Assembly (NCBI GenBank): GCA_964415895.1
Contig: CAYQCC010000007.1
Location: 1-53,201 of the forward strand
Length of the DNA stretch: 53,201 nucleotides
Direction of reading: 5' to 3'
From: an uncultured Candidatus Saccharibacteria bacterium
GTDB lineage: Bacteria; Patescibacteriota; Minisyncoccia; Phycocordibacterales; UBA1006
Below the pieces are notes generated by a model. It was not told the origin of the DNA, made no database searches, and saw only the letters and a list, made by a program, of their open reading frames with translations. Numbering within the stretch: the first letter of the stretch is position 1; every line of letters starts with the position of its first letter. Shown here piece by piece: positions 3,262-7,505 of this stretch. Made by a program: the position numbers and the translations under genes.

Positions 3262-3335
3262 AGTTACCTTACATTACCCTTACTAACCTCTGTATATCTC
3301 TCACACAGGTTCGAAGTGTAACCGATAGGCGGAGC
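3262..3335. repeat. att-like site A (putative attL), encodes the last 21 aa of the recombinase
   Basis: Ungapped direct repeat of 12642-12715; 3314-3335 vs 12694-12715 match at 21/22 nt. Confidence 0.85.
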
Positions 3336-5005
3336 ATAGTAGAAAAAACAGACGAAAACTCGTCTGTTTTTTCGTTAGACGATGTAAACAAAGGAGTTTT
3401 ATTAGGTTCGAACTTTGGATTCTCACTCTTCATTGTAATGAATCCATCCAAGAGTGCTTGAACCGATTTTGTATTGATAATACTAATCATTTCATCATTC
3501 CAGACTAGGTTCGAACGAAGTTTAGTAAGAATACTTCTTTTAGAATTAATCTGACCCTTACGCATAACGAATATAAACTCTTCAGCAAGATTAACTATCT
3601 CATTCGCACGAATAGTCCAATCAAGACTCACAGGCTTCTCTGAGGGCTTGTAGCGGGTCTCCAGGTCCAGTAAGTCAGATTTATATTCGTCATCAGTTAT
3701 CATTTTTTCGGCAAGCATCTCTCGGAGCCGTTTCTTTTTTGATTGATAGTCGGTAGCTTCTTTTTGTAGGATTTCTTCCTTGAAGAGGTTTCTATTAACC
3801 TCTTCATCTCTCATTTCCTTAATATGCTTTCTGCACCAGTCTGCAAGTTCTGAAGAAAGAGGTATTTTTTCTCCAACTTCTTTTATTAGGTAATCGGTTA
3901 GTCTTTCATCGCTTACAGATTTGTATTTGAGACCATTCTTCTTTTTCGAATTATTGTAATAATACGAATAATCAAGATACTTAGGGTTTTTCATCTCATC
4001 TATAGGTGTATTACATTGGGGGCAGTGTGTTTTATCCCTATGTGCAAATTTTTTCTTACAATCACAGATGACTTGGTATTTCTTATCAAGACCAATAAAA
4101 TCATTCTCTGGAGAAATTACAAAACCAGAAAATGTAGCCTCGTGTTTCTGAGTCTTCGGGATATTTCTTTTGCCGAGAATCATTTTGATTTCATTATGCT
4201 CATCTTCGGTAATAAGCCTAGGTAAGCTTTTGTCTAGCTCATATCTTTCACCCCCATAAAAGAAGAAGCCTGCATAGGTAGAATCTTTCAAAATTTCATA
4301 TATTCGTGAGGACTGTATTAGTTTGCCTCCAATCTTTTTTCGCTTTACAGTAGTCAATTTAAGCTCTTCTACGGCATACTTATAGAGCTTGCCAGCAGAA
4401 AATTCTTTAGTAAGAAACATCTTTAGAAGAATTTTAACTTTTTCTAACGTTGGCTCATCCACTAGCCATTTTCTATTTCCTTTCTCTTCCGTTTTATCAT
4501 TCAAGAAGCCTAGTGTTGCTACTCCGTGGGGAACACCAATAGAAGCTTTTTTAGCCTGACCTCGTTTTACATTTACTGAAAGGTCTTTAACAAATTGTTT
4601 GCCTTGACCAAACTCTACTGCTAGAACAATCACATTGTCCCAAGGGTAATAAACCTTGTCGTGGGTAATAATAGCTTTTAATACTCCTGAACTCAGGAGG
4701 TCGATAATCTTTCCACCCTCAGTCATATTTCTTGCCAGTCGGTCTGGCTTCCAACAAACTATTGTATCTACCTGACCTTTTTCAATCATCTGTATAAGGC
4801 TGGTAAACCCAGGACGAGCAAATTCTTTCTTTGCAGATTTTGATTCTTCAAATGTCTCAATAAAATCAGGAAGCTTATAAAAATCCACTATTCGCTTCGC
4901 TTCATCTTTTTGAGATTCAATAGAAAGCATCTGCCTATCTTCAGCCTCAGATGACTTTCTGTTGTAACTAGCAGGTTTTAGTTTTGTGAAATCTATATTA
5001 TTCAT
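3269..5005 (-). CDS. Large serine recombinase (resolvase + recombinase + Zn-ribbon/coiled-coil)
   Basis: YNRKSS catalytic Ser motif, DRLARN motif, CDC...CPQC Zn ribbon, coiled-coil region. Confidence 0.92.
   Translation of the reverse strand: MNNIDFTKLKPASYNRKSSEAEDRQMLSIESQKDEAKRIVDFYKLPDFIETFEESKSAKKEFARPGFTSLIQMIEKGQVDTIVCWKPDRLARNMTEGGKIIDLLSSGVLKAIITHDKVYYPWDNVIVLAVEFGQGKQFVKDLSVNVKRGQAKKASIGVPHGVATLGFLNDKTEEKGNRKWLVDEPTLEKVKILLKMFLTKEFSAGKLYKYAVEELKLTTVKRKKIGGKLIQSSRIYEILKDSTYAGFFFYGGERYELDKSLPRLITEDEHNEIKMILGKRNIPKTQKHEATFSGFVISPENDFIGLDKKYQVICDCKKKFAHRDKTHCPQCNTPIDEMKNPKYLDYSYYYNNSKKKNGLKYKSVSDERLTDYLIKEVGEKIPLSSELADWCRKHIKEMRDEEVNRNLFKEEILQKEATDYQSKKKRLREMLAEKMITDDEYKSDLLDLETRYKPSEKPVSLDWTIRANEIVNLAEEFIFVMRKGQINSKRSILTKLRSNLVWNDEMISIINTKSVQALLDGFITMKSENPKFEPNKTPLFTSSNEKTDEFSSVFSTMLRLSVTLRTCVRDIQRLVRVM
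3343..3372. terminator. Terminator-like hairpin inside the recombinase 3' coding region
   Basis: AAAAAACAGACG-AAAACT-CGTCTGTTTTTT, perfect 12-bp stem. Confidence 0.65.
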
Positions 5006-5787: not shown

Positions 5788-6627
5788 TTAAGGAATTTGC
5801 TTAATTAATCCAGTTTTAATTTGAGTCTTATTATCCTTGGCTTTTTTAATAATCGACTTAATATAATTTCCTGAATAGGGTTTTCCATCGGGTTTTTTTA
5901 GATTAAACCTGTGGAAAATGTAATTCGCAATTAATTCATCCTTTGCTCTCTCCAAGGCTTTTCTTTTGCCATTAATAGTAAACTTTTCCTTATATTCAGA
6001 TGAAAATCTTAAAGCAAAGGCACTTCTAATTTCTTCAGAAGAGAATGTATCTAGAACTCGAATCCACAATTCAAGCCCGCCAGTATCTGTTTTGGTTGCG
6101 CGTTTTTTTACCTTAGGAACACCTATTCCAATCTCTTTAAATTTTCTCAAAACATCATTTCCTGGAGTTCTTAAGAAATCAAAAATCTGTTGGTTGTCAG
6201 CCCCTGGGATAATTTTCAAATATAGGGCATCAGTGTCTGTTGTATCTTTAGTCCAAAATACATTTCCAAAAGGAATATTTTTATAAGTATCTTCTTGGAT
6301 ATCACCGAAAATAAATAATTCCGAAATCACAGGCTCCCACTCAGGTCGCAGTATTAAGTATTTATATTCAGGGTATTTCTTCGTTAGGGCCTTACGGAAA
6401 CCAATAAAAGCTTTAGACAAGATAGGTTTTTCATTGATAATTTCTTTAACAAAGCTATTTCTCAATACTAAGTTTGTCCAGTCGTATTTATCAATGAGAT
6501 ATTCAAAATCCTGATTATCAATACCGCCAGTTTTTCTGTACTTTACAGCTATTTTCTCGGTCTCTGCACTTGCTATAGTTTCAATGGCAAGATTCTTCCT
6601 ATTGTTGTTTGGTGTAGCATTTCTCAT
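5788..6627 (-). CDS. Hypothetical protein, possible C-terminal DNA-binding helix region
   Basis: 279-aa ORF; basic helical C-terminus; no family recognised. Confidence 0.65.
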   Translation of the reverse strand: MRNATPNNNRKNLAIETIASAETEKIAVKYRKTGGIDNQDFEYLIDKYDWTNLVLRNSFVKEIINEKPILSKAFIGFRKALTKKYPEYKYLILRPEWEPVISELFIFGDIQEDTYKNIPFGNVFWTKDTTDTDALYLKIIPGADNQQIFDFLRTPGNDVLRKFKEIGIGVPKVKKRATKTDTGGLELWIRVLDTFSSEEIRSAFALRFSSEYKEKFTINGKRKALERAKDELIANYIFHRFNLKKPDGKPYSGNYIKSIIKKAKDNKTQIKTGLIKQIP

Positions 6628-6740
6628 CTTCCAATCTTACCAATTTCAAGGAAAAATGATAGAATTAGCATTAACAATTCAATATTGCCGACCTAACCCT
6701 CATCGCTTGCGGTGAGATATGGTCAAATCCGCAAAAGTAT

Positions 6741-6840
6741 AAAGAACCCCTAGTCAGGGTCTGACTTTTGCAGTCCCATCGGGAAACTGGTGGTGTTGCT
6801 CTCTTCGGAGGGCGTACGCTTGGCTAGGGGCTTTTTGTAT
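6741..6840 (+). ncRNA. Putative C4/CI-like antisense RNA (three-way junction)
   Basis: Outer stem CCCCTAGTCA/TGGCTAGGGG, inner hairpin 6771-6789, C(UUCG)G hairpin 6798-6813; ACTTTTGC (6764-6771) is complementary to flanking GCAAAAGT copies. Confidence 0.55.
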
Positions 6841-6888
6841 GGCTAATTCTGGCAAGCGCATTATCAAAAAACCCGCAAAAGTAAAACT

Positions 6889-7110
6889 ATGGAATATTTT
6901 ATACAGGTGGCGATTGTTGCCTTTCTCGTCTGGGAATTTAATAGACGAATTAATAAGCTAGAGCGTCTGGTTTTAAGTCTGGAATTGCGACTTGGCGATA
7001 AGGTAAATAAGCCCAATGATTTTGATAAGTGGGCTGAAGAGCATAAGAAAAAACCTTTTCTATCTAAAGAAGAGTTGGAAAAAGAAAAGCACGAAGCTGG
7101 GGAAATTTAG
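6889..7110 (+). CDS. Small protein with N-terminal TM helix and charged coiled-coil
   Basis: 73 aa; hydrophobic YFIQVAIVAFLVW followed by a charged helix. Confidence 0.65.
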   Translation: MEYFIQVAIVAFLVWEFNRRINKLERLVLSLELRLGDKVNKPNDFDKWAEEHKKKPFLSKEELEKEKHEAGEI

Positions 7111-7505
7111 TCTTGCTGAGAGAGTTTTTCTACCACTCTTCGAGCAATTTCATCGTGATTTAAATCGAAACCAAAAGGAGGAAAATCGTAAAGCTGGGAA
7201 CTATCAAGTCTTGGGTCCGTAGAGAAATCCTTTTTGAATTTTCTCTCAAGAATCCACGCTGTAGCTTTCCAGTCTTTTTCACCAGCTTTCTCAATTTTCT
7301 GTATAAGCTTCTGTTTATATTCAATCACTTTTTGACCCATTTGTTCTGAAAATTCTGAATTTGTACGCTTCCATCCGCACAGGGTATCTTCTGAGATGCC
7401 AGCCAGCATTGAGGCATCTCTTTGAGTCATTCCGTTACCTAGAGCCTCTAGGATTATTGTGACCCTTTCGGGGGTCATTTTGTATGGTTTAGAAGGTTTT
7501 GCCAT
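7107..7505 (-). CDS. Phage terminase small subunit-like HTH protein
   Basis: N-terminal HTH (QRDASMLAGISEDTLCGW) followed by DWKATAWILERKF, a pattern I associate with putative phage TerS proteins. Confidence 0.55.
   Translation of the reverse strand: MAKPSKPYKMTPERVTIILEALGNGMTQRDASMLAGISEDTLCGWKRTNSEFSEQMGQKVIEYKQKLIQKIEKAGEKDWKATAWILERKFKKDFSTDPRLDSSQLYDFPPFGFDLNHDEIARRVVEKLSQQD

Follow-up and report, generated by a model that had tools for sequence, protein, structure and literature searches.

A LOOT RNA on a mobile island of the Candidate Phyla Radiation as a candidate two-fold leader of the following gene

LOOT RNAs (Rfam RF03000) were first found in the 2017 survey of intergenic regions by Weinberg et al. 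(PMC5737381), whose main text leaves them undiscussed. They appear in PMC7779021 as a family based on metagenomes and are also listed by PMC11701678, and they have been reported to show extreme 'cross-covariation' (PMC7657543). Rfam types the family as 'Gene; sRNA' (sRNA, small RNA), gives no function and ends its model at the hairpin P4; the literature, as far as it was searched, contained no paper assigning LOOT a function. Here we describe a LOOT RNA in a stretch of 53,201 nucleotides (nt), hereafter the window (contig CAYQCC010000007.1, positions 1 to 53,201, assembly GCA_964415895.1), from an uncultured Candidatus Saccharibacteria bacterium of the Candidate Phyla Radiation (CPR). The RNA precedes an open reading frame (ORF) of 73 amino acids (aa). 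On the evidence given below we consider it somewhat probable that LOOT is a 5' leader which switches between two folds and, transcribed from its own promoter, controls the following ORF on serine-recombinase islands of CPR bacteria. LOOT probably controls the next gene rather than being a free-standing sRNA.

Like the family as described, the locus has the P1 internal loop, a long variable helix (H2), the GAAA loop of hairpin P3 and the P4 hairpin, and it comes from an uncultured genome of CPR type. It differs in features that lie outside the family model, namely a 3' tail, a copy of one H2 strand at the next start codon and a promoter. The tail, which forms a long-range helix (S2) and carries a U-run, the start-codon copy and the promoter all appear to be undescribed as far as the literature was searched, and the same seems to hold for the regulatory design at the level of the family, although the RNA family itself is known.

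The CI RNA of phage P4 is laid out as seqA-seqB-seqC, and IsrK of Gifsy-1 is a relative within the C4 family (PMC4825925). LOOT resembles P4 CI and P1 C4 in that a complement lies inside a structured RNA at the operon start of a mobile element, flanked by two matching sites, and in the proposed control of the next gene by the downstream site with termination involved. It differs from them in lacking sequence or structure homology (no Rfam match, E <= 10) and in its upstream site, which together with the complement forms a stable cis helix of the conserved fold. Moreover, its host is a CPR bacterium, and its element is a serine-recombinase island and not a P4- or P1-type phage. With riboswitch and attenuator leaders LOOT shares the position as a 5' leader between a promoter and a co-oriented gene start, as well as two conserved helices of near-equal energy that would compete with each other; one helix runs into a U-run, and the start region is covered by a further alternative pairing. 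Unlike such leaders, LOOT has no evident ligand pocket, its putative terminator stem is long-range and encloses two hairpins, and its candidate switching helix is wholly different in sequence between relatives and has one strand copied at the start site.

Family membership and anatomy of the locus

The covariance model of RF03000 matched the window at 51.1 bits (gathering score 46.4, E 9.1e-07) over positions 1-121 of 121, and the segment 6690-6813 (+ strand) is a member of the LOOT RNA family. An earlier note on this DNA had taken the locus for a C4/CI-like antisense RNA with matching targets on both sides. C4-type Rfam models gave no match when the whole window was scanned at the gathering score or when 6500-7150 was scanned at E <= 10, and this absence rules out membership in the C4/CI family; no tRNA or tmRNA was found in the window either. 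The analogy had the layout right and the family wrong. The locus is composed of the following elements.

6637-6665, + strand: promoter-like site, TTACCA and TAGAAT spaced by 17 nt, the latter (-10 box, 6660-6665) preceded by TG; predicted start at about 6672
6671-6689, + strand: short 5' leader before P1 with the conserved word ACAAnTnAATA, here AACAATTCAATATTGCC
6690-6813, + strand: LOOT RNA, Rfam RF03000, full-length match to model positions 1-121
6690-6724, + strand: P1, with outer stem 6690-6693 paired to 6721-6724 and apical hairpin 6699-6716
6729-6739, + strand: copy 1, the 5' strand of H2, CCGCAAAAGUA; 6729-6738 pairs with 6773-6764, with a C6730.A6772 mismatch
6737-6756, + strand: 5' strand of S2, located in the apical region of H2 and made up of an A-tract (6739-6746) followed by CCCCUAGUCA (6747-6756)
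6764-6773, + strand: anti strand, the 3' strand of H2, ACUUUUGCAG, complementary to copy 1 and to copy 2
6776-6793, + strand: P3 hairpin with GAAA tetraloop 6783-6786
6798-6813, + strand: P4 hairpin, GCUCUC-UUCG-GAGGGC
6821-6840, + strand: 3' strand of S2, UGGCUAGGGGC, then the U-run 6832-6836 and GUAU; terminator-like tail beyond the Rfam model
6873-6883, + strand: copy 2 (CCGCAAAAGUA), ending 5 nt before the start codon; candidate alternative partner of the anti strand
6889-7110, + strand: 73-aa ORF with hydrophobic N-terminus (MEYFIQVAIVAFLVWEF...), without Shine-Dalgarno motif; the proposed controlled gene

Re-checking of the sequence bore out the coordinates that the earlier note had given for the direct repeat CCGCAAAAGTA (6729-6739 and 6873-6883, + strand) as well as the spacing of 5 nt between the second copy and the start ATG of the 73-aa ORF, which is at 6889. 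The complement ACTTTTGC, between both repeat copies, is at 6764-6771. The three-way junction with a UUCG hairpin described there is indeed the minimum-free-energy fold of the stretch; 6737-6756 and 6821-6840 form its closing stem, from which P3 (GAAA loop) and P4 (UUCG loop) branch, and ACUUUUGC is located in the junction. The upstream copy, which had been regarded as a separate target, is instead the 5' strand of the LOOT helix H2 and is paired in cis with the complement.

The idea that the repeat is significant by itself was rejected. The window contains 10 exact 11-mer direct repeats within 200 nt, compared with 4.3 in shuffles, and a scan for the three-part pattern (at most 1 mismatch) returned 3 matches where 0.95 were expected, a number reached by 7 of 100 shuffles; both counts are within chance for the window. 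Judged by the relatives, the three-part arrangement is real, as it recurs with different sequences among 118 distinct loci.

These relatives were collected by scanning species-representative genomes with three conserved LOOT words. The scan gave 119 stretches, almost every one of which bore the label of Parcubacteria, Paceibacterota or another CPR group, and each of 20 sampled stretches (20/20) was LOOT by Rfam at 60-89 bits. The analysis set, which combined the scan with loci collected earlier, comprised 118 distinct H2 segments with at least 250 nt of downstream sequence. Pair changes were counted on an alignment of these 118 sequences (alignment A4), and cross-locus pairs as well as each locus's own upstream region served as specificity controls.

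The P1 internal loop CCUAA...AUGG of the family is present in the window as CCUAAC (6692-6697) and UAUGG (6718-6722). This loop and the outer stem were invariant in 118/118 relatives, a figure to be read with the search pattern in mind, which itself selected for the loop; in the apical hairpin of P1, 6 of 7 pairs were changed on both sides. The variable, co-varying helix of the family corresponds to H2 (6729-6738 with 6764-6773, one C.A mismatch). Across the 118 loci 9 of its 10 pairs were changed on both sides, and the closest relatives, L008 and L002, carry G at 6772, where the window has A. P3 has its GAAA loop, with 98% of cells paired and 6 of 7 pairs changed on both sides, and the stable tetraloop of P4 is UUCG in the window, replacing the consensus GAAA. 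The reported cross-covariation of LOOT fits with H2 changing as whole address blocks.

In addition, the P1 internal loop matches 10 of the 11 positions of the 11-nt GAAA-tetraloop receptor, the sequence of which is CCUAAG/UAUGG (PMC11381326); the deviation is C for G at position 6. The conserved unpaired bases of P1 would be accounted for by a tetraloop-receptor contact, and with the P3 GAAA loop docked at this receptor-like site a P1-P3 clamp around the base of H2 would favour the H2 fold.

A long-range helix and a copied strand outside the family model

S2 pairs the apical part of H2 (A-tract and small hairpin) with the sequence immediately downstream of the Rfam model, a tail that has a U-run at its end; it is the same stem that closes the three-way junction. 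Duplexes of this segment with the tail of its own locus had a mean energy of -26.0 kcal/mol, compared with -16.1 kcal/mol for cross-locus pairs (p = 4e-58; 110 distinct sequence pairs). The helix co-varies: on alignment A4, 92.1% of the cells of its 19 pairs were paired and 17 pairs were changed on both sides, whereas the inner hairpin of the Rfam model reached 62.6% of cells paired. By this count S2 is better supported than the inner hairpin.

In the window the stem consists of CCCCUAGUCA (6747-6756) and UGGCUAGGGG (6821-6830), followed by C and UUUUU (6832-6836). It encloses about 64 nt with two hairpins, and a simple terminator scan makes no call there. A T run of at least 4 was found at the S2 tail in 79/118 loci; the remaining loci, without such a run, carry a distinct terminator hairpin, the arms of which are able to pair with the tail of S2. 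From its sequence features S2 may act as an intrinsic terminator. In one subtype (L019, L038, L072, L077; region about 100 nt after the P3 loop) the S2 tail has no U-run and is followed by a separate terminator hairpin of the form GCTAGC...GCTAGC-T6.

The second element outside the model is copy 2. The longest exact repeat of the H2 segment within the 350 nt downstream of its own locus was at least 10 nt in 40/118 cases, as compared with 28/1180 for cross-locus pairs and 4/110 for the own upstream region. When up to 1 mismatch was allowed, the H2 5' strand recurred downstream in 46/118 own loci, in 43/2360 cross-locus pairs and in 0/110 own upstream regions. Duplexes between the anti strand and the downstream region had a mean energy of -11.8 kcal/mol within loci and -7.6 kcal/mol across loci, and 57/118 loci fell below the cross-locus 5th percentile (p = 9e-15). 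The matches are local, with 49 address matches at +30 to +200 and about 21 across the remaining 0.87 Mb, and a search of the rest of the loci for additional anti-strand targets gave nothing above chance. The 5' leader, the sense strand and the tip of P1 were compared with the downstream region as well, and none of them shows locus-specific pairing.

Copy 1, the anti strand and copy 2 co-vary. Loci with a matched copy 2 fall into 17 address classes differing by at least 3 bases, and in L004 both copy sites read CGCGACGAAC, where the window has CCGCAAAAGT. In 38/46 loci copy 2 ends 2-6 nt ahead of the ATG, and in the window it covers -16 to -6 relative to the ATG. The layout proposed in the earlier note, with the complement between an upstream copy and a downstream copy at the start region, is thus conserved and co-varies in the relatives, and the small membrane ORF placed downstream by it has a hydrophobic N-terminus, with copy 2 at its translation start region.

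These data bear on the view that LOOT is a free-standing sRNA unrelated to the next gene and that the second copy in the window is there by chance. Such a view would agree with the Rfam type, with the chance-level occurrence of the 11-mer repeat taken alone and with the absence of copy 2 from about half of the relatives. The cross-locus permutations, however, reject chance (duplex energies, p = 9e-15; near-exact repeats, 46/118 vs 43/2360), copy 2 changes together with H2 through the 17 address classes while its place stays fixed 2-6 nt before the ATG, and the different H2 sequences and downstream genes exclude that the matched loci are recent duplicates. We regard a free-standing sRNA as very improbable.

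The repeats could also have a meaning at the level of DNA, either as two operators and one inverted site for an element-encoded DNA-binding protein or as the scar of a cassette exchange (target-site duplication or crossover). In line with this, the two copies are in many cases still identical for a few bases beyond the segment paired in H2, within the A-rich linker, the cargo is highly variable (61 clusters among 118 loci), and the island encodes a serine recombinase and a helix-turn-helix (HTH)/TerS-like protein. Among the positions at which the two copies differ, however, there are 7 where the anti strand forms a Watson-Crick pair with copy 2 but a G.U pair with copy 1, which makes copy 2 the better Watson-Crick partner there, and 8 with the opposite relation, where copy 2 keeps its pairing through G.U. 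This pattern argues for RNA pairing rather than mere DNA identity. Furthermore, the same address persists before different genes, with and without copy 2, and we consider a DNA-level origin improbable. Its target-site-duplication or insertion form was rejected: P1 and P3, which flank copy 1, belong to a single conserved RNA unit whose helices co-vary, and therefore copy 1 is no insertion border.

Some loci deviate in the placement of copy 2. In the subtype mentioned above (L019, L038, L072, L077) it lies within codons 4-8 (PTKK) of a zinc-ribbon ORF, and L059 and L071 have the address of this subtype together with different genes and no copy 2. Three loci (L015, L045, L087) carry CGCAAAAG-like words at the place of copy 2 before the ATG which mismatch their own H2; these words resemble the address of the window and could be decayed copies or a product of module shuffling.

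Two competing folds and the proposed control

The position of LOOT is that of a leader. In 62 of the 102 loci that have a TATAAT-like box with a 5/6 match, this box lies 20-27 nt ahead of P1, often in the extended TG form, compared with 33 matches in a control window 240-300 nt upstream. In all 118 loci LOOT is followed on the same strand, within about 45-220 nt, by the ATG of an ORF with 35 aa or more; in the window the ORF begins 76 nt past the end of the LOOT model. Of the 43 window ORFs with 100 aa or more, only 2 are preceded by a Shine-Dalgarno-like motif (-18 to -4), LOOT-led ORFs almost never have one, and the genome seems to initiate mostly without it. Since these motifs are scarce, initiation should depend on an unstructured start region, and a helix of 9-12 base pairs (bp) over -16 to -6 would for that reason be an effective lock. 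The word ACAAnTnAATA between the -10 box and P1 (6671-6689, likewise in L005-L128) is outside the Rfam model, and a pairing partner was not found for it.

S2 shares positions 6737-6738, the last H2-paired bases of copy 1, and turns the whole H2 loop into a duplex of 17-19 bp. On steric grounds we infer that a fully closed H2 and full S2 are mutually exclusive in three dimensions, and because full S2 is incompatible with closed H2, its formation would release the anti strand. The energies of the two folds are nearly equal across the family: with H2 enforced in one case and copy 1 kept unpaired in the other, the median energy difference was -2.0 kcal/mol, and 60/118 loci were within 3 kcal/mol. 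The S2 fold was the more stable one in 85/118 loci.

We propose the following control. Fold A corresponds to the fold of the Rfam model: H2 is closed by copy 1 (6729-6738) and the anti strand (6764-6773), and docking of the P3 GAAA loop into P1 may hold it in place; with H2 closed and the tail free, transcription would read through and the start site would be accessible (ON). In fold B, the top of H2 (6737-6756) would pair with the tail (6821-6840) to form S2, the anti strand would be released and transcription would terminate at the U-run (OFF). In those transcripts that escape termination, the released anti strand would pair with copy 2 (6873-6882) and block initiation; the place of copy 2 suggests that this pairing prevents translation.

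A number of points weigh against this proposal. In the window itself fold B is ahead by 11.8 kcal/mol (-66.0 vs -54.2), and H2 is weak, with 8 bp and the C.A mismatch; the S2 fold is favoured here because H2 is A-rich and mismatched. The LOOT RNA of the window may be decaying or stuck OFF; no lower Rfam score than its 51.1 bits was seen, and the window lacks the mod-res genes that relatives carry. Copy 2 is absent from about half of the LOOT loci, which makes the start-site lock an optional add-on and not the core function. The proposal names no candidate ligand or protein input, and the RNA shows no ligand pocket. H2 could also coexist with a 10-bp core of S2 as a pseudoknot, in which case H2 would be no antiterminator. 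Finally, the RNA runs that share words with the region gave only assembled contigs of relatives with G at 6772, and these contigs give neither direction nor ends.

Some of the same observations can be read in terms of antisense control in trans, of the P4 CI or P1 C4 type, as had been suggested in the earlier note. A U-run-terminated RNA of about 165 nt in fold B would expose the anti strand in the junction; it would pair with copy 1 of nascent leaders, preventing H2 and favouring termination, and with copy 2 of read-through mRNAs, blocking their translation, and the variable H2 would set the specificity of immunity or incompatibility between related islands. The copy-complement-copy layout with the downstream copy on the start region equals seqA-CI-seqC of P4 (PMC4825925), and fold B is the minimum-free-energy fold of the terminated window RNA, with ACUUUUGC unpaired in the junction, besides being the more stable fold in most loci. 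Many discrete H2 address classes on a conserved scaffold would fit with selection for specificity, and one metagenome-assembled genome has two LOOT loci of the same address before different genes (L076, L081). On the other hand, an Rfam C4 match is lacking, the targets lie almost only in cis and directly downstream, the complement is a helix strand and not a loop, copy 2 is missing from about half of the loci, and nothing points to a discrete processed RNA. We therefore hold control in trans to be possible and rather unlikely, while action in cis and in trans may both hold. As to L076 and L081, which are on two contigs of that genome, their leaders have the common address CCGAACCAAC, each with copy 2 before a different gene; this could reflect co-regulation in trans or a recent duplication.

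In its widest form, such action in trans would make LOOT RNAs addressable riboregulators, composed of a tetraloop-receptor-clamp scaffold, an exchangeable 9-13-nt H2 address and a copy at the cargo start, with the terminated leader acting in trans. This we put forward only as a speculative idea that is more doubtful still.

The island and its cargo slot

The earlier note had placed the locus on a CPR element, and its setting is indeed a mobile island of a CPR genome. The parts of the island, in order from left to right, are the following.

3269-5005, - strand: large serine recombinase
between the recombinase and LOOT, - strand: ORFs of 55 aa and 279 aa
6690-7110, + strand: LOOT and the 73-aa ORF
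7107-7505, - strand: TerS-like ORF of 132 aa
7585-12234, + strand: Avs1b-like STAND NTPase

By PADLOC (E 4e-20) the 1549-aa ORF at the right encodes an Avs1b-like STAND/NACHT NTPase. The 132-aa ORF, which is convergent, matches the small-terminase family phrog_4102 (E 8e-20) and overlaps the stop of the 73-aa ORF by 4 nt.

Homologues of the 279-aa protein sit in mod-res-277aa-55aa-recombinase operons that adjoin tRNA-Asn, and in these loci LOOT points the opposite way, toward a small ORF. In L002 and L004-L008 LOOT is separated from the 277-aa gene by a type III restriction-modification pair (mod, res). The layout of the window agrees with that of its relatives' operons except that mod and res are lost, and the 279-aa gene starts 62 nt from LOOT. 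The protein of 277-279 aa is a conserved, unnamed third gene of the mod-res operons; relatives of the 279-aa neighbour were not found in viral contigs. At the end of the serine-recombinase gene (3269-3520) there is a tRNA-like acceptor/T-arm piece, TGCTCCGCC...TTCGAACC, which aligns with the 3' end of the relatives' tRNA-Asn, and no whole tRNA is present there in the window. The 11-mer TAGGTTCGAAC occurs at 3403 and 3506, within the same gene.

The ORFs behind LOOT are diverse: among the 61 clusters of the 118 loci, 84 ORFs have a hydrophobic N-terminal segment, and Pfam matches include Ltp lipoprotein, Imm_superinfect, SNase, tRNA_anti-like and SHOCT. Compared with the ORFs at the same place, the 73-aa ORF is 59% identical to that of L008 and 33% identical to that of L005. 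It matched no Pfam, PADLOC or PHROGs family and has only one database homologue, which is near-identical; on these grounds a role as toxin is unsupported.

For the window itself the result is modest, a somewhat weakened member of a known family ahead of an orphan 73-aa membrane ORF. If LOOT RNAs did act in trans as addressable riboregulators, they would constitute an RNA-based immunity or incompatibility code between islands, an independent analogue of P4 CI and P1 C4 and the first in the Candidate Phyla Radiation. For the family, which has been in Rfam since the 2017 survey as a metagenome-only entry with no proposed function, the leader reading would provide a concrete and testable job, the gating of the cargo slot of CPR serine-recombinase islands. 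This slot is often occupied by small membrane or exported proteins, the type that phages use for superinfection exclusion.

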